DNA of 46,805 nt from Minisyncoccota bacterium (GCA_041650235.1 JBAZLP010000001.1:1-46805), one strand, 5' to 3'. Shown: positions 20,543 to 34,849, numbered from the stretch's first letter. Program-made: numbers and translations. Notes: generated by a model from the sequence alone, not told the origin.

Positions 20543-21726
20543 TTAAACGAAAGTTATCGCTTCTCCCTTCTTGTTTCCTCTTCCCGTTCTTCCGATCCTG
20601 TGCACGTAGTCATCATATGTGGCCGGGATATCGTAGTTGATGACGTGGCTCACATTGTTTATGTCCAAACCTCTCGCCGCCACGTCGGTCGCAACCAATA
20701 CTTTGACAGTTCCCGCCTTAAAGCAATCGATCGCCCTCTTCCTTCTCGACAGGTTCTTGTCCCCGTGGATCGACTCAGCCATGAAACCCCTTTTGATCAG
20801 AGCTTTGGCGATCTTTTCCACCCCGTATTTGGTCCTTCCGAAAACAAGGACTTTCTTGAATTCTTCCTTGCTCAGATACTCGCAGAGAACATCTATCTTT
20901 TTAGTCGGGTCTCCAACCTTGACTATATCCGGTTGACATTGGCCGATGATTCCTTCTTCTTTACCGAAATCTTTTCCGGATTCTTCAAGAACTGGTTCGA
21001 CAGTTTTTCTATCTCTTCGGGCAGGGTCGCTGAAAAAAGCAGAGCTTGCTTTGCCTCAGGCATCTGTCCTATCAGGAACTTCATGTCCCCGATAAAGCCC
21101 ATGTCGAGCATCCTGTCGGCCTCGTCTAAGACTATCGTCTGGAATGAAGCCATGTTCAGGGCTTTCCTCTGGACCAGATCCTTGATCCTTCCCGGAGTTC
21201 CGATGACGAAATTATTGCTCCTCCTGGTATCCCTCAATTGCCTCCCGATATTCGTTCCGCCTATGCAGAGAAGCGGGAACAGATGCAGCCCGGGAGTGAA
21301 ATCGTTGAATTCCTTTTCTATCTGGAAAGCCAATTCCCTGGTCGGAACGATAATGATGGTTTTGTTCTTCTTGTCCTTTAGGGATTTATTGATCGCCGGT
21401 ATCAAAAAGGCGGCCGTTTTTCCCGTTCCGGTATTGGCTATGCCGACTACATCCCTCCCTTTCAGAATCAGAGGGATTATCTTGTCCTGGATCGGGGTCG
21501 GTTCGCGATATCCCTTGCGGATGATGTTATTCTTCAGCCGGCTGTCTATTTCAAAGTCATCGAACAGGTGCTCCGGGGTATAAACATCGTTTTCGGCGGG
21601 AACCGCTTTCTGGACGAACTTGGCTGTATCTATCCTGGATGCCGAAAAACCTTTCTTTTGAGGAAAGCTCTTCTTGCCGAATCGGGAACGATTATTGAAT
21701 TTTCTACCTTTGAATCTTTTTTGCAT
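20543..21726 (-). pseudogene. DEAD-box ATP-dependent RNA helicase interrupted by a single frameshift near 20926-20935 (pseudogene, programmed shift or sequencing error)
   Basis: The N-terminal ORF carries the Q motif (YREPTPIQ), ANTGTGKTAAF, PTRELA, VLDEADRMLDMGF and SAT. It ends SANVNRI* at 20923. The -1 frame continues directly as PDIVKVGDPTKKIDVLCEYLSKEEFKKVLVFGRTKYGVEKIAKAL...HRIGRTGRG. Confidence 0.65.
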
Positions 21727-21799
21727 ATTATTAAAAAAACGGATCCCCTCCAATACGGAGAATCCGCCCTCGTATCTCAATATCTATGTCCAAACCATA

Positions 21800-23239: not shown

Positions 23240-23295
23240 AATTAATATTTTATTTAAAATAGAACTAGCAATAAATCTCTCGCTACTTTTTTATA

Positions 23296-23328
23296 TTGGC
23301 TCGGGAGGTGGAACGAACTTGGAACCTT
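23296..23328 (-). repeat. tRNA-3'-end-like repeat, copy 1 (island distal boundary)
   Basis: Plus strand: ttggctcgggaggtggaacgaacttggaacctt, immediately 3' of the HIT gene stop. Confidence 0.7.
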
Positions 23329-23330
23329 CT

Positions 23331-23714
23331 TTAGTAATTTCCCTTTCCTGGGATCACATTCCTAACACCACCACGAGGATTTTCCACGTCGCCCTTGTAG
23401 CGAGGTATTAAATGTATATGCAGATGCTGAATTGTTCTACCAGCCGCTTCGCCTTCATTAATGCCAATGTTATAGCTATCTGGATTAAATTTATCATCGA
23501 TTATCAGTCTTGTTTTTTGGAGTAATTCGTAAAAATCAGCAAGCTGCTTACTCGTGAGTTCGAAAAATGACACGATATGGTTTTTTGCAATTATTTCACA
23601 ATGCCCGGGAGTTACAGGAAAATCATCGTATCTTGAAAAGAAACTTTGGTTATCGATAATAATTTTATCGTCTTTTTTCTTTTGAATTTCGCAAAAAAAG
23701 CAGTCTTTTTCCAT
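23331..23714 (-). CDS. HIT (histidine triad) family nucleotide hydrolase/transferase
   Basis: QHLHIHLIPR is the HxHxHxx triad. An upstream CFFC zinc-like motif is present. Length 127 aa. Confidence 0.85.
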   Translation of the reverse strand: MEKDCFFCEIQKKKDDKIIIDNQSFFSRYDDFPVTPGHCEIIAKNHIVSFFELTSKQLADFYELLQKTRLIIDDKFNPDSYNIGINEGEAAGRTIQHLHIHLIPRYKGDVENPRGGVRNVIPGKGNY

Positions 23715-23719
23715 GGTTT

Positions 23720-24022
23720 TTATGACTCATCAAGAATTATTTTATCTTTAAACTTACCCCTTTCCTCTGCCTTTTTATTTTTAATTGCTTCTAATTCTTC
23801 TTTGCTAAAATTCTTGAAATTTATTATGGCATCAATAACTTCTAAGATATCTGCCATTTCTTCAGCGTTTTCGTCTTGTATGAATTCATTTACCTCTTCT
23901 TGCAACTTTTCCTTTAATTTCTGCCAGTATTCTTTGTCGTCGGCAATATGAGTAATGGGAATACTCCCCTTGCTTTTAATTATTTCTGGAATTCTATCTC
24001 TGACTAATTTATTGTACCTCAT
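23720..24022 (-). CDS. MazG-like/PRA-PH-like all-alpha NTP pyrophosphohydrolase
   Basis: YNKLVRDRIPEII N-terminus, with EE..E and EEMADILEV acidic helices typical of the house-cleaning NTP-PPase family. Length 100 aa. Confidence 0.6.
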   Translation of the reverse strand: MRYNKLVRDRIPEIIKSKGSIPITHIADDKEYWQKLKEKLQEEVNEFIQDENAEEMADILEVIDAIINFKNFSKEELEAIKNKKAEERGKFKDKIILDES

Positions 24023-24028
24023 GTCTTT

Positions 24029-24037
24029 ATCTTACCA
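24029..24037 (-). promoter_or_regulatory. Extended -10 (TGGTAAGAT) 6 nt upstream of ATG 24022
   Basis: The minus strand reads TGGTAAGAT-AAAGAC-ATG. Confidence 0.4.
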
Positions 24038-24065
24038 AAAAACCACTTTAATTAAAAGGCGGCTT

Positions 24066-24099
24066 GACGACTCGGAAGATACAACAAGCTTGGAACCTT
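24066..24099 (-). repeat. tRNA-3'-end-like repeat, copy 2
   Basis: Plus strand: gacgactcggaagatacaacaagcttggaacctt, about 30 nt 3' of the hydrolase stop. Confidence 0.6.
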
Positions 24100-24129
24100 T
24101 TTAATTTCAATGCCTGGTTATTAATATAT

Positions 24130-24894
24130 TTATATTTTATTTATCCAGTTATTTAATATTTCCTTAACTTCTTTTAGATGCTTCGGTTTGCTAAAAACAT
24201 GATCTGCATCTTTAATGACATAAAACTTCTTATCACTCGGTAAAGCTTCGTATAAAATTTTCTGATGGCCAACCGGGGTTGATTCATCGTTTTCTCCTGC
24301 AACCAGCAACGTGGGCATGGTTATTTTTCTAACTTGAGTTAAAAGATTATATTTTAATCTATCCTCCATATGCGACCAAGGGATTTTTTTAAAAGTTCCC
24401 GGCTTTGATTTTCTTTCAGAAATTCGCCAACCTGTTCGTTGCCACTCCATTATCGCTTCAGGATTATTCTTAAGAGATAACTCACCGGAAACAACTGTAG
24501 ATAATAAGGAGATGGCTTTAACTTTTTCTGGATGATTTTCGGCATATAATGCTACTGCAATCCCGCCCAAGCTATGCCCGGCTAAAACAAATGGCTCTTG
24601 ATAAAAATCATTGCTTTTTACCCAGTTAATAACGTCTTCCAAGTCTTCGTAGTAATTCGTTGTTGTTGCATTTTCATAGTTCCCGTCGCTTTCACCAAAA
24701 GTATTTGTTGCATCAAATCGTATTGTATTATAATTACGCTCCAAGAAAACTTCTGCGCAAATTTCTATTATTGGCTGATTCTTAGATCCGCCCAGGCCGT
24801 GCATAATAAAAACCAGTCCAACCGGATTTTCTGCCTTTTGAAGTACTACAGATATTTTCTGATTTTTTCTATTCTTAATATATATCTTTTCCAC
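24130..24894 (-). CDS. Alpha/beta-fold hydrolase
   Basis: HGLGG oxyanion region, nucleophile elbow GHSLGG, and late Asp (GENDES) and His (DADHVF). Confidence 0.8.
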   Translation of the reverse strand: MEKIYIKNRKNQKISVVLQKAENPVGLVFIMHGLGGSKNQPIIEICAEVFLERNYNTIRFDATNTFGESDGNYENATTTNYYEDLEDVINWVKSNDFYQEPFVLAGHSLGGIAVALYAENHPEKVKAISLLSTVVSGELSLKNNPEAIMEWQRTGWRISERKSKPGTFKKIPWSHMEDRLKYNLLTQVRKITMPTLLVAGENDESTPVGHQKILYEALPSDKKFYVIKDADHVFSKPKHLKEVKEILNNWINKI

Positions 24895-24910
24895 AAATAT
24901 AACTTTAAGC

Positions 24911-25213
24911 TCATCCTTTAGTTCTAACGTTAATCCCGTTAATTTTTTCGTATTCGCGCTTTTCGTTTTTTGATATCTTTTTTACTATTTCCTCCTCTAA
25001 ATCAACCTTTAACATCTCAGAAAGTCCCATTAAGTATATTGCTACGTCGGCAAGCTCTTCGCCTAAATCGTCTTTCTTCTTCCTGTATGCATCATACGCC
25101 TCTCCTAATTCTCCATAGGTAAAACAAAATTCTTTATTAACATCTTCTGTGTTGAAATTTTTGTTCAATTTATTTTGGAATATTTCCTTTTGAATCTTTT
25201 TTAAATCTATCAT
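24911..25213 (-). CDS. MazG-type nucleotide pyrophosphohydrolase domain protein
   Basis: GELGEAYDAY ... LGEELADVAIYLMGLSEML. The EExxE/EELAD acidic motifs belong to the MazG family. Length 100 aa. Confidence 0.7.
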   Translation of the reverse strand: MIDLKKIQKEIFQNKLNKNFNTEDVNKEFCFTYGELGEAYDAYRKKKDDLGEELADVAIYLMGLSEMLKVDLEEEIVKKISKNEKREYEKINGINVRTKG

Positions 25214-25242
25214 GTTGTTGATTAAAATGCCTTATTATTTTT

Positions 25243-25277
25243 ATTATATCATAAAGCAAAAACCGACAAAAGTCGGC
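25243..25277 (-). promoter_or_regulatory. Terminator hairpin (25258-25277) plus extended -10 TGATATAAT (25243-25251), module copy 3
   Basis: The minus strand reads CCGAC-TTTT-GTCGG TTTTTGCTTTA TGATATAAT. Confidence 0.55.
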
Positions 25278-25283
25278 TCTATA

Positions 25284-25316
25284 TTGGCTCGGAAGATGGA
25301 ACGAACTTAGAACCTT
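25284..25316 (-). repeat. tRNA-3'-end-like repeat, copy 3
   Basis: Plus strand: ttggctcggaagatggaacgaacttagaacctt. Confidence 0.7.
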
Positions 25317-25341
25317 TTTAGATTTAAATGCTAATTTAATT

Positions 25342-25782
25342 TCAATAACAAAAACAATTTTCTAAAAACTTTTTTTGCTCTTTTATCATTTTATTGGGTA
25401 ATTTTTTAAAATATTTGAGCTCACTAGAATTTTCGTCGGGTTGAAAGTTATTGCTAGTTGGCTTAACTTCTATTGCAACACTTACGCTATGGAATTGAAC
25501 ATTTGAACGAATTTCATTCAAAAATTCTATATATCCAAGGAATTTTTTCGGCATTACAATTAAACCAGTTTCATCTTTTGCTATTCTTAATATAGCGTTA
25601 GATATTTTTTCTTTTTTAAAAACTGTTCCACCAGGTAAATGCCAAAAACCTTTACGTGGGTCGATTGCTCTTTTGGTAAGCAAAATCCCTTCTTTAGATT
25701 TTATTATAAGATCTACACAGAGGCGTGGGACCTTGCTGTAAATATCAAAAAAATCTTTTTCACTTAATGGATATTTACTCAT
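25342..25782 (-). CDS. NUDIX hydrolase
   Basis: Nudix box GGTVFKKEKISNAILRIAKDETGL (Gx5Ex7R.xx.ExG; the second Glu position is degenerate). Confidence 0.75.
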   Translation of the reverse strand: MSKYPLSEKDFFDIYSKVPRLCVDLIIKSKEGILLTKRAIDPRKGFWHLPGGTVFKKEKISNAILRIAKDETGLIVMPKKFLGYIEFLNEIRSNVQFHSVSVAIEVKPTSNNFQPDENSSELKYFKKLPNKMIKEQKKFLENCFCY

Positions 25783-25807
25783 ATTTATATTTTATTAATA
25801 ATAAAAT

Positions 25808-25816
25808 ATTATATCA
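25808..25816 (-). promoter_or_regulatory. Extended -10 (TGATATAAT) upstream of the Nudix gene
   Basis: The minus strand reads CGTGATATAAT, 25 nt from ATG 25782. Confidence 0.4.
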
Positions 25817-25851
25817 CGTAAAGAAAAAACAACAAAATATCTGCTTTAGAT

Positions 25852-25883
25852 TTGCTCGGGAAGTGGAACGAACTTGGAACCTT
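25852..25883 (-). repeat. tRNA-3'-end-like repeat, copy 4
   Basis: Plus strand: ttgctcgggaagtggaacgaacttggaacctt. Confidence 0.7.
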
Positions 25884-25935
25884 TTTGGTTCTAAATATCT
25901 TAGAATAAAAAAGAACGAGGTAGTAATCTCGCCTG

Positions 25936-26274
25936 TCATTCATCGAAAACTTTTTTGTTTTCTCTGATCCAAGGAATCACCTCGTCTAATATCTGCGGGT
26001 ACTCCGAAGACGGAATACTTTCTTTTGTTTTCAAAACGGCTATGGTCCACAAGTCGGTCACGCCGCCCAGTCCCATAAAATGAAATCTGATACGGCGGAG
26101 AATGTATAGTATTCCATCCTTTTGAGTGAAGAAATACGTTTCTTTCTCGTCAATGACCTCGCTCGAACTTTCAAATTCGAGATCATTTAATCCGTATTTT
26201 TCTACGAATTCTCCATACTCTTTACCGCGAGTGCTATCGCAAATACCATCAATAATTTCAATTCTGGGTCTCAT
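25936..26274 (-). CDS. Hypothetical protein (112 aa)
   Basis: Clean ORF with its own TTGACA-17-TATTAT promoter (26293-26321). No motif recognised. Confidence 0.55.
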   Translation of the reverse strand: MRPRIEIIDGICDSTRGKEYGEFVEKYGLNDLEFESSSEVIDEKETYFFTQKDGILYILRRIRFHFMGLGGVTDLWTIAVLKTKESIPSSEYPQILDEVIPWIRENKKVFDE

Positions 26275-26322
26275 TTTTATGACTTCGACAAAATAATACT
26301 ATATTTATATAGTATTGTCAAG

Positions 26323-26354
26323 TTGCTCGGTAAGTGGGACAAACTTGGAACCTT
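26323..26354 (-). repeat. tRNA-3'-end-like repeat, copy 5
   Basis: Plus strand: ttgctcggtaagtgggacaaacttggaacctt. Confidence 0.65.
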
Positions 26355-26374
26355 TTTGGTTTCCTAATTTTGGC

Positions 26375-27418
26375 TTATTTGTGGGGAGGATTTTCATAAC
26401 ATAGAAAATCGGCTTCCGCATTACCAATATTTTTAATCCCGTGAGATTGTTTTGGTAATATCCTAACTTGAGGCAATTTATTTAGAAATAATTCATTAAT
26501 CTTTCTCGGTCTATTCCCTTGGTATTTCATTACGGTGGACTTTCCATTAATATTTATTTCTAATTTTCCATTTATTAAATAGTAAATATGTTCGGTGTAT
26601 GGATGCTCGTGAGGTTCCATAATAATATTCGGCTTGATAATAATATATGAAAAAGGAGACTTTCCCTTGAAAGGGACCAAACTAACTCCAGCCACGCCTT
26701 TATAAATTGTTGTTCTTTTGAAATCAGGGATAGAATTCTTTTTTCTTGGCTTAAATCCCCAAGTCCAAACCCTGGACTGAATCCCCTCACTCGGTCTTCG
26801 ATATGGAACTAATAATGATTGAATTGCTTCAAAACCATTTTTCCTTAACTCTGATTTTAAATATTGTGGAGATGTAAAATAATAATCAGCTCTTGAAATA
26901 TATTCTATGTCTTCATTATTGGATGTGGATTCGTTGCTAATAAATAATAATCCTTGCTCTTTCAAAACTTTTTTATTTTCTTTTATAAATTTTTTTACTG
27001 ATAATTTACTATCTAGTAAATGACCAATCAAACCATCTGAAAAAGATAAATCGAAATAATTTTCTTTTAACCCAAAAGGTTTGCTAGCATTTAGGACTCT
27101 AGTTTTTAGTCCTTTATTCTTGGCAAATCCTAGGGCAGATTCACAAACATCAGTTGCTAGAACGTTATGACTCGAGTCTAATAATAATCTTTCTATAAAA
27201 GCGTTACCACATCCGCAACTTAAAATTCTATTACCGGAAGTGTAATTCAATAATTTATTTAAAATTACTATCATTCTTTCTCGGTATTTTTTATGCGATG
27301 TGGATGGAGTCATCGAGTTTCCCATATTTTTTCCGTTTTCCCAGATTTCAAATCTCGTCTTTCCGTTTTCAACTGGAGACTCGTAATACTTTTTAATTTT
27401 ATTAATAGAATTTCTCAT
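26375..27418 (-). CDS. Class I SAM-dependent methyltransferase fused to a C-terminal cupin domain
   Basis: SAM motif I ILSCGCGNAFIE followed by D-V(LATDV). The C-terminal beta-barrel has HEHPYTEHIYYLING...HGIKN (cupin His ligands). Confidence 0.65.
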   Translation of the reverse strand: MRNSINKIKKYYESPVENGKTRFEIWENGKNMGNSMTPSTSHKKYRERMIVILNKLLNYTSGNRILSCGCGNAFIERLLLDSSHNVLATDVCESALGFAKNKGLKTRVLNASKPFGLKENYFDLSFSDGLIGHLLDSKLSVKKFIKENKKVLKEQGLLFISNESTSNNEDIEYISRADYYFTSPQYLKSELRKNGFEAIQSLLVPYRRPSEGIQSRVWTWGFKPRKKNSIPDFKRTTIYKGVAGVSLVPFKGKSPFSYIIIKPNIIMEPHEHPYTEHIYYLINGKLEININGKSTVMKYQGNRPRKINELFLNKLPQVRILPKQSHGIKNIGNAEADFLCYENPPHK

Positions 27419-27442
27419 AGCTGCAAAATTTTCATTGTTTAA

Positions 27443-27480
27443 ATTATATCACAAAACAAAAACCGACAAAAGTCGGTTTT
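27443..27480 (-). promoter_or_regulatory. Terminator hairpin (27459-27480) plus extended -10 TGATATAAT (27443-27451), module copy 4
   Basis: The minus strand reads AAAACCGAC-TTTT-GTCGGTTTT TGTTTTG TGATATAAT. Confidence 0.55.
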
Positions 27481-27484
27481 GGAA

Positions 27485-27517
27485 CTGCTCCGATTGATAG
27501 ACGACATTAGAACTTCT
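27485..27517 (-). repeat. tRNA-3'-end-like repeat, copy 6 (most divergent; keeps the TGCTCCG of the tRNA)
   Basis: Plus strand: ctgctccgattgatagacgacattagaacttct. Confidence 0.5.
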
Positions 27518-27547
27518 TTATTAAAAATTAATAAATAAAATTTAAAA

Positions 27548-29782
27548 TCAAGCCTCAAGAGGAATCTCAATAGATGTTTCTATTTGAATCATACTTAATA
27601 CTTCTTGATGCAAATCAATTGAATCATCTTCTTGCATATCTTCTATAGAAAGAATTATTGAATATGGCTGCTTATAGCCAGATGGCAATCCATTATCTTT
27701 GGATTCGCAAAAAATGTTTAATTCCCAAAAATTTCCTGTATGTTTCATTGTAGAAACCTCTAGTGCTGGATAACACTTAACATTTGACTTTGTGTGAGCT
27801 CCGTCGTCTGAATTACGAGTGCTAAAACTATCTAAATTTTTTTGATCTTCACGTATAAACTGAACAGAAATATTAATCGGATTATACGTTCTTACATTTT
27901 TATGATTAATCGGACTAGAATATACGAGAGTTTTTCTAACCTTTAAGCGTTTCCTACTGCTTCCAGATATGCAACTAGGTATTGGAAATTTAATAGTCTT
28001 TTTTTTATTTATTCCTATCTCGTCTTCGATCACCAAAGTTGAAGAAGAATTTAGTGAATACATTGCCTTTTCTAAATTAGGCATTCCGAATCCAGATAAT
28101 TTCTTTTTCATAGTTTCATTTGTAATGCAATCACATCTTATTGATTCAGCAAAATGGATAAGAAGAGCCTTAATTGTATCTTTATTGTATTCTGGATAAA
28201 AATTATGCAACAAACAGGCCTCATGTAAAACTAATGGTGCCGCAAAACTTGTCCCTGAAGCTTTAGTAAGTTTATCGCTTTGCTTAGATGCCAAATAAAC
28301 ACCATTATATTCACAGCTAAAATCTCTTTTATGATTAGAATCATAATGTACAAAGTCTGGCTTAATAAATGGTACCGCATCTAAATTTGCTCTAGTTATT
28401 ACAACTGGATTTTTAATTTTTGTTATAGAATCAACACTTTCCTGATACGCTATTGATCCTACTGATATATTATTTATACTGTCTGAGGGTGGAATAATTC
28501 TACATATCGGCAGTTTAAAATAATTAGGATATCCCATTGCCTTGACCATCCTTTTTTCGTTTGCCCCCCAATCCCTATCAAAAAGATTACCAACTGAAAT
28601 AAAAAATAAACAATTATACTTATAAGAAAGTTCGTCCAATAATTTAGTTAATTTATCTACTTTTTTTCTATTATAATATATATAATTATTAATTGAAAAA
28701 TTTATTAACATCATTTGATAATTTGCTGCATTTCTCTCAATTGCTTCAATCAGCCTCTCTTCTAATCTTAAAAAATAACCTCCTCCTTCTGATAAATCGA
28801 CTGCTATAACTTTATTATCTTGCTGAATGCTGCCAGTAATATTAAGATGATGGCCACATACGACTAAGCTAGCAACAGCCGTAGCATGATCTTTATTGCC
28901 AGTATGTAACCCTACTTTTCCAACCATTGCCCCTCTAAGAATTACGTGCTGATCATTTACCGCTCCATCAAAGACAAATGCTGGCTCTCCGTTACTCAAT
29001 GGTGGTAAAATATTAAAATCGTCTATATTTCTTTCTAATGAAGATCCAATTAGGGTGTAATCAGGAGACTGCTCTATTTCAATTATTCCTTCATAATTTT
29101 TATGCAAAACTTCCACGTCATTAAACTTCGCTTTCATTCTACAAAAATGTAATAGTTCTGTATTAACTTTTGAAATAAACTTTTCGGGAAATTGCTCTTT
29201 AATAGCGTCGATTTTTGTATTTGCAATATTTTGCTTATCAGCAAACGAAACATCGATAAATACCTCCTGACTTGGATTTGTTTTCATCTTCCTCTTCAAT
29301 TCTTTTTCGATTATTTCTTCAAGGGTTAACGGTTTTATTTCTCTAATTTTTTCGAAATAAGACTTTAATTTCCCTTCCTCTACATAAGCAATGGCTTCAT
29401 CTTGCAAACGTCCAAAATCAGATTTTCCGCCATCTAATGATTTGCTGCTAATTTTACCATAGATAGTTGTGTTTTTTTCTCTATTCTCTTCTTGACGATA
29501 AACCTGTATTCTATATTTCGATAAAAAATCTGGGTTTACGGGACCATAAAATTTAATTTTAATTTCATTGGTTTGCTTATCGGTATCAATTTTAAAGGAT
29601 TCTTCTTTTTTAGAGAAAAAACTGCTAATCCTATTTACACCGCTTAAAACCTTTTGCTGTTGTTTTTCTCTATTAAATTCACCCAATGCTTTAAAATTCC
29701 TCCGTGGGGGAGCAGTATATGTATTCTCGCTGGAAAATAATTGACCAGGAATTTTAATATGTTTATATTTTTTTCTTGGCAT
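27548..29782 (-). CDS. Subtilase (peptidase S8) with a ~270-aa unknown N-terminal domain; IetS-like
   Basis: Catalytic triad contexts AFVFDGAV (Asp), DHATAVASLVV (His) and SGTSFAAPLV (Ser). No signal peptide, so predicted cytoplasmic. The ATG lies 20 nt inside the upstream ATPase gene. Confidence 0.85.
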   Translation of the reverse strand: MPRKKYKHIKIPGQLFSSENTYTAPPRRNFKALGEFNREKQQQKVLSGVNRISSFFSKKEESFKIDTDKQTNEIKIKFYGPVNPDFLSKYRIQVYRQEENREKNTTIYGKISSKSLDGGKSDFGRLQDEAIAYVEEGKLKSYFEKIREIKPLTLEEIIEKELKRKMKTNPSQEVFIDVSFADKQNIANTKIDAIKEQFPEKFISKVNTELLHFCRMKAKFNDVEVLHKNYEGIIEIEQSPDYTLIGSSLERNIDDFNILPPLSNGEPAFVFDGAVNDQHVILRGAMVGKVGLHTGNKDHATAVASLVVCGHHLNITGSIQQDNKVIAVDLSEGGGYFLRLEERLIEAIERNAANYQMMLINFSINNYIYYNRKKVDKLTKLLDELSYKYNCLFFISVGNLFDRDWGANEKRMVKAMGYPNYFKLPICRIIPPSDSINNISVGSIAYQESVDSITKIKNPVVITRANLDAVPFIKPDFVHYDSNHKRDFSCEYNGVYLASKQSDKLTKASGTSFAAPLVLHEACLLHNFYPEYNKDTIKALLIHFAESIRCDCITNETMKKKLSGFGMPNLEKAMYSLNSSSTLVIEDEIGINKKKTIKFPIPSCISGSSRKRLKVRKTLVYSSPINHKNVRTYNPINISVQFIREDQKNLDSFSTRNSDDGAHTKSNVKCYPALEVSTMKHTGNFWELNIFCESKDNGLPSGYKQPYSIILSIEDMQEDDSIDLHQEVLSMIQIETSIEIPLEA

Positions 29783-30893
29783 AATTCTTATAAGAATTTC
29801 TATGTATACCTAATGTTTCTGACATTTTAAGCTTAGAACATCCAGTACTTTCCATTATCCCACAAAGGTCTGATAAGATTTTACGATGTTGTTTTTTTAA
29901 ATTTTTTGGATTTTTGAGATAATCTTCGGTAAACAATGTTTTTACAAAATCAACTAAATCTGTTTCTTTTTTACCTTCTATTAAATTATTAATTACCGTT
30001 TTGTCAAAAAATACTTTTATTTCGTCAACAGTATTAATTTTCAAAGCATCTAAAGCTTCTGTTAAAAACTTTTTTTCTTTATCGCTTATTTTTATTTTAC
30101 TTATTTTTGTTTGAGTTTTATTTATTAAATAATTAAAAAAGTTTTCTTTTTCTCCATCAACCAACTCATCAACCAATATTTTAAATTTAAATCTCCTCAA
30201 AATAGCTGGATCTATAGATTCTAATAAATTTGTAGCAACAATGATTATTTTGTTTCCAGAATTAAAATCTAGAGTTTGTATAATGGAATTTACTATTCTC
30301 TTAAGTTCTCCTACATCATTTTTGTCTGTACGATTTTTTGCGAACGCATCAAATTCATCTATAAAAATAACCGTATTTTCTATACTTTTAAAAACATCTG
30401 CGATATTATGCATTGTTTCGCCAAGTCTAGACGATATAACGTCCGTTATCTTAACATAACTTATATTTTTTTTGAGTTTGTTGGCAATATAGAATCCTAT
30501 CGTTGTTTTTCCACTTCCTGGTGGTCCATAGAGCAAAATTTTATTAAATTGATCTGCAATTTGTGGTACTTTAACCTTTTGATGCAATTTTATAAATTTA
30601 TCTAATTTTGGTTCAATACTTGGAGCTATCCAAATATTTTCTATGTCTAAAAAAAGATTAGAATCATTATTAATTGGATTAAAATTAGACAAACTTGGCA
30701 TAATAGAAGATTTCTCATCTGAATATTCTTCTATGAGATCTAAAAAATTATTATACGATTTATGTCTATTGGCTTTAATCTCTTTTGCTGCGGTTTCTTC
30801 AATAATTTTAACTATTGCCGCTCTATCTCCCTTTAGTCCCAACTCCGCCAATTTTAAAACTAGGTCTTTTTTTGAGTTCATATTGTTATGCAC
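29763..30893 (-). CDS. AAA+ ATPase with a C-terminal Fis-type HTH-like tail; IetA-like
   Basis: Walker A GPPGSGKTT, Walker B VIFIDEFDA, sensor/Arg-finger region ATNLLESIDPAILRRF. The tail is CSKLKMSETLGIHRNSYKNYAKK. The track start 30893 is a GTG, and ATG 30881 (MNSKKDL) is an equally possible start. Confidence 0.85.
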   Translation of the reverse strand: MHNNMNSKKDLVLKLAELGLKGDRAAIVKIIEETAAKEIKANRHKSYNNFLDLIEEYSDEKSSIMPSLSNFNPINNDSNLFLDIENIWIAPSIEPKLDKFIKLHQKVKVPQIADQFNKILLYGPPGSGKTTIGFYIANKLKKNISYVKITDVISSRLGETMHNIADVFKSIENTVIFIDEFDAFAKNRTDKNDVGELKRIVNSIIQTLDFNSGNKIIIVATNLLESIDPAILRRFKFKILVDELVDGEKENFFNYLINKTQTKISKIKISDKEKKFLTEALDALKINTVDEIKVFFDKTVINNLIEGKKETDLVDFVKTLFTEDYLKNPKNLKKQHRKILSDLCGIMESTGCSKLKMSETLGIHRNSYKNYAKKKI

Positions 30894-30928
30894 AATTTGA
30901 TTATACCTTTATAAAATTGTGCAGTCAA
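30889..30928 (-). promoter_or_regulatory. Consensus sigma-70 promoter (TTGACT-17-TATAAT) embraced by a 9-bp inverted repeat (candidate operator)
   Basis: The minus strand reads TTGACT(30928-30923) GCACAATTTTATAAAGG TATAAT(30905-30900) CAAATTGTGCA. The inverted-repeat arms TGCACAATT / AATTGTGCA are at 30889-30897 and 30915-30923. Confidence 0.55.
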
Positions 30929-30995
30929 TAGTTTCCAGCTTTAATTAAGATTTTATTTTTAAATAATCATACTTCTTTAATAACTTCTATTACTT

Positions 30996-31844
30996 GTGGA
31001 TATTCTTGATTATCCACTAATAACAAAAGAAGAACATGATCAAATCCAAATTATACTTGGTAAAAAAGGAAGGCCTCGTCCTAGAACTCATGAATTCCCT
31101 TTTACTGGAATGATAACCTGTGGCGAATGCGGAGCAATGATTACAGCTGAAGATAAAACCAAAAGGCAAAAAAATGGAAATGTCCATAATTACACCTACT
31201 ATCACTGCACAAAAAAGAAAAATCCTAATTGCACACAAAAAAATATCAAAAAAGAATGTCTAGAAAAACAGATTATTGATATTTTAGAATCAATAGAGAT
31301 TCCAAGTGAATTCAAGGAATGGGCTTTAGACGTTTTGAAAGAAGAAAATGCTAAAGAGTTTGTCAATAAAGAAATTATTTTGAGCTCTCAACAAAAAAAC
31401 TATAATTCATGCATCAGAAGAATAAATAATTTAATTGATATGAGGGCAAATGAAGAAATTACAGAGGAAGAATTCTCTAAAAAAAGAAAAGAGCTAACTC
31501 AAGAAAAAGAAAAAATTAAAATTATTTTAGAAAATAGTGATGAGCAAGTTAATGATTGGGCTGAAAAAGCGACACAATTATTTTCATTTGCAGAATTAGC
31601 TAAAACTAAATTTGAAAATGGATCATTAGAAGACAAAAAAACTATTCTTTCTTGTTTAGGTTCGAACCTCTCACTAAAAGATGACAAACTCAGTATAGAA
31701 CTACAAAAACCATTACGTCTAATAGAAAAAGCATCTTTAGAGGTAAAGACTATCAACGAAAGGTTAGAACCTGTTGATTTTAGCTTAGATAAAAGAAAAA
31801 TGGGAGAAATATACTCCCAAAGTCCTATGTTGCTCCGGTGGTAG
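30996..31844 (+). pseudogene. 5'-truncated large serine recombinase (zinc-ribbon + coiled-coil C-terminal part only)
   Basis: It begins at a GTG with ...PLITKEEHDQIQ, then the recombinase zinc beta-ribbon FTGMITCGECGAMITAEDK...YTYYHCTKKK, then a long coiled coil. The resolvase catalytic domain and most of the recombinase domain are absent, with only 100 nt upstream. The last 12 nt overlap the 3' end of tRNA-Asn on the other strand. Confidence 0.7.
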
Positions 31845-31904
31845 GATTCGAACCTACAACCTAATGCTTAACAGGCATCCGCGCTACCATTGCGCCACAC
31901 CGGA
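31833..31904 (-). tRNA. tRNA-Asn (anticodon GTT), 72 nt, CCA not encoded
   Basis: Hand fold: TCCGGTG TG GCGC AATGGTA GCGC G GATGC CTGTTAA GCATT AGGTT GTAGG TTCGAAT CCTAC CACCGGA G. The acceptor stem has a perfect 7 bp, the T-loop is TTCGAAT, and the anticodon loop is CT-GTT-AA. Confidence 0.9.
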
Positions 31905-31950: not shown

Positions 31951-33135
31951 TTAATACCCCTCCAACTTCTTCAGATTGCCGTGCTGGCGTATCTTCTCTA
32001 TGGCTTTAGCCTCGATCTGCCTGATCCTCTCTCTGGTAACCCCGAATTCCTGACCGACCTCCTCAAGAGTATGCGTCACCCCGTCGTCCAAACCGAAACG
32101 CATGGAAAGGATCTTCTGTTCCCTGTCCGCCAAGTCCCTGAATATCTCGTCCAAATGCTCCCTCAATAAGGTTCTTCCCGCCGAAGAAGCCGGAGACTCT
32201 ATCTTCTCATCCTTGATGAATTCTCCGAGGACGCTGTCTTTCTCGTCTTCTCCGACTGGAGTTTCCAAAGAAACTGCTTTCTGAGAAATCTTCTCCAGAT
32301 GCCTGACTTTCTCAACTTCTATCCCCATCTCTGCTGCAATCTCCTCTGCCAAAGGATCTCGATCCAATTCCTGCAACAGCTTCCTCTTGGCCTGGGTGTA
32401 TTTGGTCAATGTCTCAATCATGTGGACGGGAATACGGATAGTTCGAGCCTGATCGGCCAGAGCCCTGGTAATCGTCTGTCTGATCCACCAGGTGGCGTAT
32501 GTGGAAAACTTGTATCCTTTCCTCCAATCGAACTTCTCAACCGCCCTGAACAATCCAAGGTTTCCCTCCTGGATCAAATCAAGCAAAGTCAAATTGGGAG
32601 ATCGTCCTATATACTTCTTGGCTATGGAAACGACCAATCTGAGGTTAGCTTCGGCCAGCTTCCTCTTGGCATCCTCGTCCCCCGCTTCTATCCTTTTCGC
32701 CAAATCCTTCTCGTCTCTCGCTGTAATCGGATCGATCCTTCCTATCTCCTTCAAGTACGACTGGATCGAATCTATCTTTCCCGAAGAAACCCTCTTCCTT
32801 CCCTTCTTCTTAACCTCTTCCGTGTCGAGGTATCCCCTGGACTCCCTGACGTCTATGCTCAGCTGTTCCAGCTTGTCGAACATGGAATTAAGCTCCTGGA
32901 TGTTCTGCTCCACGTTGGGGAAGTAGTTCAAAATCTCGGAAAAGGTGATGAACCCCCTTGTTTTCCCCTTTTTGACGAGTTCGTCGAGCTTCTCCGGGGT
33001 TATAACCGAAATCACCCTCTTCTTCCTCTTTAGGGGCTTAATCGCCTTCTTTTTCGGAGCTTTCTTCTTCAGGACCTTTTTCTTCGGTTTCGCCGGCTTT
33101 TTCTTCGAAACCTTCTTTTGGGGCTTCTTCTTCAT
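31951..33135 (-). CDS. rpoD: Primary RNA polymerase sigma factor (sigma-70/RpoD) with a Lys-rich N-terminal extension
   Basis: Region 1.2, region 2 ([16 protein letters not shown]), region 3 and region 4.2 ([28 protein letters not shown]). The N-terminal 40 codons ([19 protein letters not shown]) overlap the dnaG 3' end. An alternative GTG start is at 33015. Confidence 0.9.
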
Positions 33136-34849
33136 TGTTTTTTATTAGCTTATTAAATTTAGACAGAAGTTCCGATACCTCCCCTCCCTCCCTCTCTTTG
33201 ATCTTTATCTCATCAACCAATCTCTCCCTTTCCTCCTTCAGGGATAATCTCTCAATCTCATCCAAGCACTTTTTGAACTCTTTATCAAGCTCTATCTCCG
33301 AATCCTTCAACAATTCCGACTTGATCAACATGTAATTCAGGAAGTTGTCATCGATCGAACCGTCGAGCAATTCTTCCGTTTTGATCGAAGGATTTTCCTT
33401 TATCCTCCCCAATATCTTCGCGATCCGAGACGAAAACGAAGAAATATCCAATCCGGAAACCAATGAAGGATCGATCAATGCTATGGCCAGCATGACCTCT
33501 TCCAGCATCTCCCCCCTCGTCTTCTTCTCTTTCTCGATAGCCCTTGTTTCTTCCGCGGAAACAGCCTCTACTCTCACTTTCTGCATCTCTTTCCTTATGT
33601 CCCCCTCCTTTATCTTAAGGCGGTTCCCCAATTCTTCGATCCAATAGCTCTGTTCTATGTTATTATCAATTTTCTTGAAAACAGGCAAGAGGTCGGAGGC
33701 GATCTTCTTCTTGTCTTCGAACAACTCCGGATCCCTCCCCTTGAAGGCCAGATCGAAATAGAAGCGGTTGATCGGCTTGGCTTCGTTGACCAATGAGGCC
33801 CATTTCTCCGGCCCCTCGATCAAAACTATGTCCGCCGGATCCTTTTCCGCAACCATGGAAATGACCTTGACGTTGAATCCGCTTTTCAAAGCCATGTCTA
33901 TGCCCTTCCCCGTAGCTTTGTTCCCGGCCAGGTCCATGTCGAATGCCAGAACCAGGTTCGATGTGTATCTCTTGATTATCCCCAAATGGATCGGGGTCAA
34001 AGCGGTTCCCGAAACGGCAATACAGTTCTTCACCCCTGCCTGATGGGACATGATGCAGTCGACGTTACCCTCGACCAGGACACAGAAATCTTTCTGCCGT
34101 ATCTCCATCTTGGCTTTGTCCATCCCGTACAGGGCCCGGCTCTTATCATACAAAAGAGTGTTGGGCACGTTCATGTATTTGGACTCCTCTTCCGACTTGA
34201 AGACGCGGCCGGTAAAGCCGATGACCGAAGAATTGAAATCGCAGATGGGGAACATTATCCTCGATCTGAACCTGTCGAAGAACTTCTGGGAATCCTTCCT
34301 TATAGCCAGGCCAGCCGAAACTATATTCTCCCTCGCAAAGCCCTGGCCGATAAGGTAATCGGACAAGCTCTGCCAGGAATTGGGGGCATACCCTATCCTC
34401 CAGTCCCTGATCGTCTCTTCGGTCAATCCTCTCTTCTTCAGATAATCCAGAACCTCCGTTCCCGTTCCGCTCTTTAATTGGGCGGAAAAGAACTTGGTCG
34501 CCCTTTCGTTTAAATCCAATAAAACCTGTCTCTCGCTCTTCATCTTCTCGTAGTCAGCCGAGCCCTTCTTCAACTGGACCCCGGCTTTGTCCGCCAGGAT
34601 CTTCAAAGCATCGACGAACTCGATTCCCTCAATCTTCATCACGAATTTGAAGACATCCCCGCCTTCGTTGCATCCCCCGAAGCAGTGCCACAATTGGCGG
34701 GAAGGAGAAACAAAAAAAGAAGCCGACTTTTCCGAATGAAAAGGACAGCGGGCTCTGTAATTGATTCCCGCTTTCTCCAGCTTGATATATGCGCCGACGA
34801 CATCCACGATGTTCAGGCGCGATTTTATCTCTTCTATGTCAGAACTCAT
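33038..34849 (-). CDS. dnaG: DNA primase
   Basis: CHC2 zinc finger [31 protein letters not shown] motifs ([18 protein letters not shown]). Confidence 0.9.

Follow-up and report, generated by a model that had tools for sequence, protein, structure and literature searches.

The 46,805-nt stretch of DNA analyzed here (GCA_041650235.1, JBAZLP010000001.1:1-46805; hereafter the window, at its full length) comes from a Minisyncoccota bacterium and carries a two-gene module, ietAS, for an AAA+ ATPase (IetA) and an S8-family subtilase (IetS). We assign the host to Paceibacterota because its DnaG is 97–99% identical to proteins so named. Both genes are intact minus-strand open reading frames (ORFs), with ietA directly upstream of ietS and 20 nt (29763..29782) shared between them. 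The original prediction, made from the sequence without database searches, had described two overlapping genes encoding 372–376 and 744 residues as a candidate IetAS-like defense pair, and ORFs of exactly this position, size and overlap were recovered. The public gene call for ietA is 372 aa. With a promoter, overlapping genes and a terminator, ietAS forms a self-contained transcription unit. A decayed relic was ruled out, since the promoter, the terminator and both genes are intact.

Profile searches placed both proteins in the IetAS family, whose PADLOC models scored far above any other. The PADLOC model for IetA (PDLC02196) matched the ATPase with E=1.9e-56, aligning residues 11–374 to profile positions 6–370 of 374 and covering 97% of the protein, and the model for IetS (PDLC02197) matched the protease with E=9.2e-55, aligning residues 131–731 to positions 118–730 of 749. 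Three further IetA models (E 2e-46 to 2e-22) and seven further IetS models also matched. In NCBIfam, where the IteA/IteS pair is modeled by NF042959 and NF042956, the top-ranking families were IteA (155.6 bits) and IteS (159.9 bits). Pfam matches were limited to AAA in the ATPase (E=4e-27) and Peptidase_S8 in the protease (PF00082, 51 bits against a cut-off of 21.8). Full-length alignment reached ~40 IetS relatives (37–73% identity) and ~80 IetA relatives. A standard defense-system annotation would already name the pair IetAS.

The IetA sequence contains GPPGSGKT (123–130), VIFIDEFD (175–182), VATN (219–222) and ILRRF (231–235). The features that define the classic clade of AAA+ proteins, namely Walker A and B, sensor-1 and two arginines in the second region of homology, are all present, and K129, D179/E180, N222 and R233/R234 are invariant in both alignments of relatives (A3 and A4). 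The assignment to the classic AAA+ ATPases made in the original prediction therefore stands. By sequence, IetA matched VAT and Cdc48 in the PDB, and its AlphaFold2 (AF2) model (predicted local distance difference test score, pLDDT, 83) matched Msp1, Vps4, proteasomal Rpt, Cdc48 and FtsHi in Foldseek searches.

IetA ends in a helix-turn-helix (HTH)-like tail, which AF2 predicts as three short helices with pLDDT 84–92. The tail falls within the IetA profile match and is kept across the Patescibacteria clade. A counterpart, ISDITGVSRDTIRKY, is carried by the IetA of a Komagataeibacter plasmid, and comparable HTH-type tails end nearly all IetA-like partners of the distant IetS-like genes we examined, those on IMG/VR viral contigs included; a 310-aa Agrobacterium IetA variant is without one. 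Since the tail lies inside the profile and recurs on distant partners, it is a standard part of the family, and its reading as the mark of a variant is not supported.

In IetS, the catalytic residues D272, H299 and S512 occur in the Asp-His-Ser order of S8 peptidases together with the oxyanion N399, and all four are invariant in an alignment of 36 sequences that includes relatives at only 18–22% identity, in agreement with the intact triad noted in the original prediction. The AF2 model (pLDDT 90, predicted template modeling score 0.90) matched subtilases in Foldseek with E down to 3e-24. A hydropathy test, the only one made and not a dedicated signal-peptide predictor, found no export signal: no 19-residue window exceeds a Kyte-Doolittle value of 1.14, and the protein has a hydrophilic, strongly basic N-terminus. 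The same hydropathy analysis revealed no hydrophobic segment in either IetA or IetS. A cytoplasmic protease without a signal peptide, as originally proposed, is consistent with these values.

A sequence search of the PDB with IetS (E up to 0.01) detected no relative of solved structure. By structure, the top PDB match is the pro-form ProN-Tk-SP (3afg; E=3e-24, 590 aligned columns). The other top bacterial subtilase matches, KP-43 and SubHal among them, align over 474–492 columns, followed by pro-subtilisin E (3whi) and furin/kexin. These pro-subtilases are closest in structure to the complete IetS model and share with it a beta-alpha-beta-beta-alpha-beta module just before the catalytic domain and a beta-sandwich after it; unlike them, IetS lacks a signal peptide, has an extra N-terminal helix plus a second module, and shows no detectable sequence similarity to I9 propeptides. 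In the AF2 model the second module comprises strand 174–180, helix 184–197, strands 202–207 and 212–218, helix 220–229 and strand 233–238, with D272 34 residues further on. The linker at ~241–250 is short and less confidently modeled, and P240 is invariant.

The N-terminal region of IetS forms a small sequence family. A single-sequence search of 1.84 billion representatives with residues 1–265 found 22 clusters, all of them N-termini of ~745–760-aa proteins or fragments of such proteins, and Pfam searches with residues 1–271 (E up to 10) gave nothing beyond a meaningless Ig_ILCR1 match at E=0.049. At the very start of the protein, the motif MP(K)KKYKHIKLP (residues 1–12; window 29751-29782) is nearly invariant in the clade, with Y6, H8 and P12 present in at least 27 of 29 sequences. 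AF2 models it with high confidence as short strands, and its coding sequence partly overlaps the end of ietA. We regard these 12 residues as a candidate recognition handle for IetA. Clade-specific sequence is limited to residues ~1–130; the IetS profile covers the rest from residue 131, and the total length of 744 aa against 749 profile positions is that of a canonical IetS. The original prediction had singled out the N-terminal domain and the ATPase tail as non-standard features that may define a distinct variant. Both are standard for the family, the first ~130 residues of IetS aside, so that part of the interpretation is not supported, while the IetAS-like pair in a mobile-looking island holds.

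Close inspection of the intergenic DNA upstream of ietA revealed a palindrome embedded in the best promoter of the region. In its core, TGCACA-N23-TGTGCA, the left arm lies between the −35 and −10 boxes, and the right arm spans both the GTG codon and the probable start of transcription. Because the −10 box is only 7 nt upstream of GTG and the right arm covers that codon, ATG 30881 is the likelier start of ietA, which implies a very short leader. The pattern TGCACA-N17-25-TGTGCA matched once in the window, against 0.01 matches expected by chance.

The palindrome is shared by relatives of the pair. Among related loci gathered by protein similarity, it recurs, exactly or with one mismatch, at the ietA start of 17 distinct loci with one copy per locus. 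These loci come from several Patescibacteria lineages, Paceibacterota, Yanofskybacteria, Saccharimonadales and Gracilibacteria among them, and encode IetA proteins of ~40–75% identity. Of the 15 distinct palindrome versions with 35-bp spacing, 13 have TATAAT or TATACT at a fixed offset, and the aligned relatives have the −35/−10 geometry of the ietAS promoter. Their consensus reads TTnac, then TGCACAAtTtT-N7-TATAAT-aAAATTGTGCA. TGCACA..TGTGCA was not found in any of the 31 viral or three distant loci searched. A 34-bp form occurs in the Gracilibacteria locus L001 (6780-6813), where the central TATAAT is missing and a TATAAT lies downstream instead, and again in L021 (4947-4980). L001 was the one locus found by a scan of genome contigs; it shows no long ORFs under genetic code table 11, and the alternative genetic code of Gracilibacteria is the probable reason.

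The three distant loci (L029–L031), with IetS proteins 26% identical, have an IetA tail of their own, KSPTTVHRYI, and a promoter palindrome of their own, TTTCAT..ATGAAA, which parallels the TGCACA..TGTGCA operator of the Patescibacteria clade. A conserved promoter palindrome together with such a tail is the arrangement expected if an antitoxin tail represses its own promoter. From the sequence pattern, the palindrome probably lets the putative DNA-binding tail of IetA control its own operon by autorepression. The IetAS family itself was already known; what is new here is the promoter-embedded palindrome shared by relatives.

We examined the neighborhoods of related pairs. In L002, L005, L010, L012 and L015, in the plasmid loci L008 and L009, and in most distant and viral loci, an AAA gene immediately precedes the S8 gene and either overlaps or abuts it. 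In the Komagataeibacter plasmid pair, proteins of 385 and 739 aa are encoded by genes that overlap by 11 nt; the Agrobacterium pair encodes 310 and 742 aa. The closest intact relative, L015, whose IetS is 72% identical, has genes for an EcoRI-like methylase, GmrSD-HNH, an Mrr nuclease and an AAA_15/21 ATPase after its serine recombinase and ietAS. Other pairs adjoin a TIR protein and a serine recombinase; GmrSD and an AAA_15 ATPase; or Vsr, Dcm and HNH genes with a tyrosine integrase; one is carried by a small element that also encodes a serine recombinase and a Prim-Pol replication module. The two genes stay adjacent in every related locus inspected as their neighbors vary, and no housekeeping synteny, the arrangement that would speak against a defense role, was found among the related loci examined. 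Distant IetS-like subtilases (21–28% identical) are also encoded on 31 IMG/VR viral contigs (L032–L062), most of which, where checked, carry an upstream AAA ATPase ending in an HTH-type tail, which points to phages or prophages as frequent carriers of IetAS-like pairs.

The pair lies in an AT-rich island, as originally described, with a G+C fraction of 0.26–0.37 between ~23 and 32 kb against 0.45–0.52 on either side. Strains at 96–97% nucleotide identity share both flanks: homology runs up to 31832, at the 3' end of a tRNA-Asn gene, and resumes leftwards from 23302 or 23262. Between the tRNA-Asn gene and the methyltransferase gene, these strains carry other genes, and ietAS is absent from the site. 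The cargo in L064 (11597-14429) and L065 (8215-11047) is a 171-aa ORF plus a 650–678-aa AAA_15/AAA_21 (OLD/ABC-type) ATPase, flanked by ~25-bp direct repeats; L063 (3394-5183) has three small ORFs, and the more distant relative L066 yet another gene set. In the sister strains, direct repeats composed of the tRNA 3' end plus ~20 nt, CCGGAGCCAATATGAAGATTATCGAGAGA and GGGGAGCCATATGAAAATTATCGAGAAC, stand on both sides of the island. This differing cargo places ietAS in a strain-specific island at an integration hotspot. The tRNA-Asn site is a strain-level variable hotspot in Paceibacterota, and ietAS is accessory and horizontally acquired. Next to the pair lies the recombinase remnant recognized in the original prediction, 45% identical to residues 253–527 of the intact 527-aa large serine recombinase of L015; its ORF ends inside the 3' end of the tRNA-Asn gene.

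The other genes of the island at 23331-27418 all lie on the minus strand and code mostly for small enzymes that handle nucleotides. After almost every island gene stands a repeated intergenic module of 40–85 nt with the minus-strand core AAGGTTCCAAGTTCGTTCCACYTCCCGAGCCAAT, and several copies are followed by a terminator hairpin and a TGnTATAAT-like promoter. An Rfam search of 22.5–32.5 kb (E up to 1) found the tRNA-Asn only, so these repeats are not a known RNA family, and the box was not found in any fetched locus or in IMG/VR. We dropped a reading as integron attC sites in a cassette array: the box has no consistent fold, and it aligns with the tRNA-Asn 3' end and attachment (att) site. The alignment of the core with the tRNA-Asn 3' end and the downstream att sequence of the sister strains makes the island look like a stack of small units inserted successively at the tRNA gene, each of which appears to have left a decayed att copy.

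Two further observations concern genes outside the island. A DEAD-box helicase near 20930 is split by a 1-nt deletion into two minus-strand ORFs (20923..21780 and 20543..20821), and its 96% identical counterpart in L063 is an intact 403-aa protein; the split reflects either a genuine frameshift or a fault in the assembly. The longest rpoD ORF (31951-33135, 394 aa) has a lysine-rich start and overlaps dnaG (33038-34849) by 98 nt. In sister strains rpoD is called at 354 aa with a start after dnaG, which suggests that the true start is downstream.

Table 1. Features of the ietAS locus, its island and related promoters. Coordinates are those of the window unless a locus is named.
Feature	Coordinates	Strand	Description and basis
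ietA	29763..30893	-	Classic-clade AAA+ ATPase, putative antitoxin; 376 aa from GTG, 372 aa from ATG 30881; PADLOC IetA, Pfam AAA, AF2, Foldseek
IetA AAA+ core, residues 119-242	30168..30539	-	Walker A K129, Walker B D179/E180, sensor-1 N222, Arg fingers R233/R234
IetA C-terminal three-helix HTH-like tail, residues ~337-372	29778..29885	-	GIHRNSYKNY; AF2, conservation
ietS	27548..29782	-	744-aa cytoplasmic S8 subtilase, putative toxin/effector; PADLOC IetS, Pfam Peptidase_S8, AF2
IetS N-region, residues 1-265	28988..29782	-	Basic motif MP(K)KKYKHIKLP, helix 38-62, two beta-alpha-beta-beta-alpha-beta modules (71-151, 174-238); AF2, conservation
IetS second module and conserved linker, residues 174-244	29051..29263	-	Prodomain position of pro-subtilases, tentative; Foldseek, AF2 topology
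IetS S8 catalytic domain	28058..28987	-	D272 28967-28969, H299 28886-28888, oxyanion N399 28586-28588, S512 28247-28249
IetS C-terminal beta-sandwich, residues 580-715	27638..28045	-	All-beta in AF2; Foldseek to subtilases with C-terminal beta domains (Tk-SP, KP-43, furin/kexin)
ietAS promoter, sigma-70 type	30900..30928	-	-35 TTGACT, 17-nt spacer, -10 TATAAT; 11/12 consensus matches, best site in region
35-bp palindromic operator candidate	30889..30923	.	TGCACAATTT-N15-AAATTGTGCA; brackets -10 box; perfect 10-bp inverted repeat
Terminator-like hairpin and T run, intrinsic type, downstream of ietS	27459..27480	-	Sole terminator-like site in 27300-31100
TTTCAT..ATGAAA promoter-region palindromes	L029:2600-2740, L030:5300-5436, L031:2700-2840		Distant IetAS clade
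Strain-specific AT-rich island carrying ietAS, 8.5 kb	23303..31831	.	GC, comparison with close strains
tRNA-Asn (GTT)	31832..31904	-	3' end is right-hand island boundary; homology to near-identical strains ends exactly at 31832
Large serine recombinase remnant	30996..31844	+	C-terminal 275 aa with zinc ribbon and coiled coil; Zn_ribbon_recom domain; catalytic N-terminal half missing
Intergenic module copies	23290-23331, 24061-24102, 25245-25329, 25812-25896, 26316-26357, 27445-27529
HIT-family protein	23331..23714	-
100-aa ORF	23720..24022	-	Size like MazG-like protein, no Pfam match
Alpha/beta hydrolase	24130..24894	-
MazG-like protein	24911..25213	-
Nudix hydrolase	25342..25782	-
Methyltransferase-cupin fusion	26375..27418	-

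IetAS is reportedly one of the anti-phage systems of Gao et al. 2020. Its earliest description, cited in both PMC13069673 and PMC8562856, was as a toxin-antitoxin system that stabilizes the plasmid pTiC58. In published members IetS is described as toxin and IetA as antitoxin, no ietA mutant could be made and defense requires protease activity; the mechanism was described as unknown in 2026 (PMC13069673). The Bacillus cereus IetAS is an abortive-infection system whose trigger is the SPbeta yosG product (bioRxiv 10.1101/2022.08.27.505566). A mycoplasma AAA-ATPase/subtilase pair, TA132/133, is a functional toxin-antitoxin system in which deletion of the antitoxin is lethal; it resembles the present pair in architecture, protein sizes (353 and 757 aa) and reduced-genome host, and its chromosomal locus has flanking direct repeats that its authors read as recombination scars, as the island here has att-like repeats (PMC8562856). 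Toxicity, neutralization and antitoxin-deletion lethality were assayed there. The ietHAS system (Liu-DS4) shares the IetA and IetS core and adds an SNF2 helicase (PMC13069673). No helicase gene lies beside the pair here or in the related Patescibacteria loci examined.

Compared with the known IetAS (IteAS) family, which includes the ietA-ietS pair of Agrobacterium pTiC58, the pair in the window has the same order, with the AAA+ gene first and a ~745-aa S8 peptidase gene overlapping or abutting it, a near end-to-end profile match, a cytoplasmic protease and both active sites intact. Location on mobile elements and in defense islands is likewise common to both, and the HTH-like tail is also found on plasmid and viral-contig IetA. 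The pair differs in the first ~130 residues of IetS, which are specific to a small Patescibacteria clade, and in the almost invariant promoter palindrome TGCACA-N22/23-TGTGCA. Type II antitoxins autorepress their own operon. With type II toxin-antitoxin operons ietAS shares the antitoxin gene in first place, translational coupling, a predicted DNA-binding-type domain on the antitoxin and a palindrome over the core promoter; the antitoxin there is small and labile, whereas here it is a 42-kDa AAA+ ATPase whose DNA binding and repression we infer.

Taken together, we consider it highly probable that the pair is an intact, divergent member of the known IetA/IetS two-gene toxin-antitoxin and abortive-infection family, with IetS as the toxic effector that IetA keeps harmless. 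By homology, the function of the locus would be that of the published members. IetS would be toxic unless IetA is active, a phage protein could trigger the system, and the outcome would be abortive infection or stabilization of a mobile element. IetA resembles protein-threading AAA+ machines and so probably acts directly on IetS, for which the basic IetS N-terminus (MPKKYKHIKLP) and the two N-terminal modules would be the best candidates for a handle or a built-in inhibitor. IetA may bind the 35-bp palindrome around the −10 box with its C-terminal HTH tail and repress its own operon like type II antitoxins, and disturbed transcription or IetA supply could tip the balance toward free IetS.

Several observations weigh against parts of this picture. 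Identity to plasmid-borne family members is only ~25–31%, and the NCBIfam scores are far off the equivalog cut-offs of 510 bits for IteA and 900 bits for IteS; best-ranking yet so far under these cut-offs, they mark the pair as belonging to a divergent clade and not as orthologous to the reference proteins. Pore loop 1 of classic-clade AAA+ translocases carries an aromatic-hydrophobic-Gly motif. In IetA it reads S-R156-L-G-E, without the aromatic residue typical of threading AAA+ proteins; at the aromatic position, 37 sequences have R (21), K (11), Y (3) or L (2), with L or F next. Komagataeibacter IetA has Tyr where this clade has Arg or Lys. The IetA tail reaches no Pfam HTH threshold, although its sub-threshold matches are all HTH families (HTH_36, HTH_30, HTH_8, HTH_3, MerR). 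The Komagataeibacter plasmid ietA encodes the tail, yet we found no obvious palindrome upstream of it, and a factor other than IetA, the binder we infer, may occupy the palindrome. For the second N-terminal module of IetS, which may correspond to an inhibitory prodomain, hhalign of residues 165–262 and 60–160 against six I9 propeptides gave no alignment. With Pfam equally empty, the prodomain reading is a tentative suggestion from structure, without support from sequence. Around the pair, PADLOC gave weak domain-level matches only (HIT family model, PDC-S07, mad2) for eight other island ORFs, and the island as a whole is not a recognizable defense island. To our knowledge, no phage of this uncultured host has been described.

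In an unlikely alternative, ietAS is purely an addiction module, a post-segregational killing device of a former serine-recombinase element that has outlasted the decay of that element and has no anti-phage role in this host. Besides an island without known defense systems around the pair, the truncated recombinase and the loss of the genes between it and ietA fit such a history, as do relatives on small integrative elements that carry both a serine recombinase and a Prim-Pol replication module, and the first description of the family as a plasmid-stability system of pTiC58 (as cited in PMC13069673 and PMC8562856). Family members nevertheless protect E. coli and B. subtilis from phage, the closest intact relative, L015, holds the pair within a restriction-type gene cluster, and addiction and defense are not mutually exclusive.

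It is very improbable that the two proteins form a housekeeping ATP-dependent protease, with an AAA+ unfoldase feeding a peptidase as in FtsH, Lon or the proteasome. The translational coupling of ietA and ietS and the structural proximity of IetA to proteasomal Rpt, Cdc48, FtsH-like, Msp1 and Vps4 ATPases would suit such a machine, but its pore loop has no aromatic residue, and strains 96–97% identical do without the pair at the same site. A low-GC island at a tRNA hotspot, a patchy distribution with mobile or defense neighbors, and an N-domain family of just 22 clusters in 1.84 billion representatives also speak against a housekeeping role, and family members are toxic without the ATPase (PMC13069673, PMC8562856). 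Least credible, to the point of being nearly dismissed, is an exported protease that acts outside the cell with the ATPase as its secretion or maturation chaperone. The best structural matches of IetS (Tk-SP, KP-43, furin) are extracellular or secretory-pathway enzymes, and of the characterized S8 subtilases that have a prodomain and a C-terminal beta domain, most are secreted. Against export stand the absence of a hydrophobic segment (maximum 19-residue hydropathy 1.14), the basic, hydrophilic N-terminus, whose motif is kept as a structured strand and not as a cleavable signal, and the family's identity as an intracellular toxin (PMC13069673, PMC8562856). PADLOC matches for both proteins and near-identical strains without the pair favor a candidate IetAS-like defense pair in a mobile-looking island, as the original prediction had it.

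Within the toxin-antitoxin reading, we put forward a more specific model, which we hold to be possible but somewhat less than even in probability. IetA would be a bifunctional antitoxin and operon repressor, its HTH tail seated on the palindrome, so that control of the toxin is wired to transcription and IetA supply; IetS would be a zymogen-like cytoplasmic protease, its conserved basic N-terminus and tandem ferredoxin-like modules gripped or remodeled by the ATPase. The locus adds a compact, divergent IetAS clade from reduced-genome Patescibacteria, and it documents in Paceibacterota a tRNA-Asn hotspot at which near-identical strains swap accessory, partly defense-like cargo. It also offers three leads for IetAS: the promoter operator with the HTH tail, the basic N-terminal motif and the prodomain-like module before the catalytic domain. 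If the model is true, the near-invariant operator in Patescibacteria, together with a different palindrome accompanying a different tail in the distant clade, would give the first concrete regulatory and mechanistic handle on IetAS.

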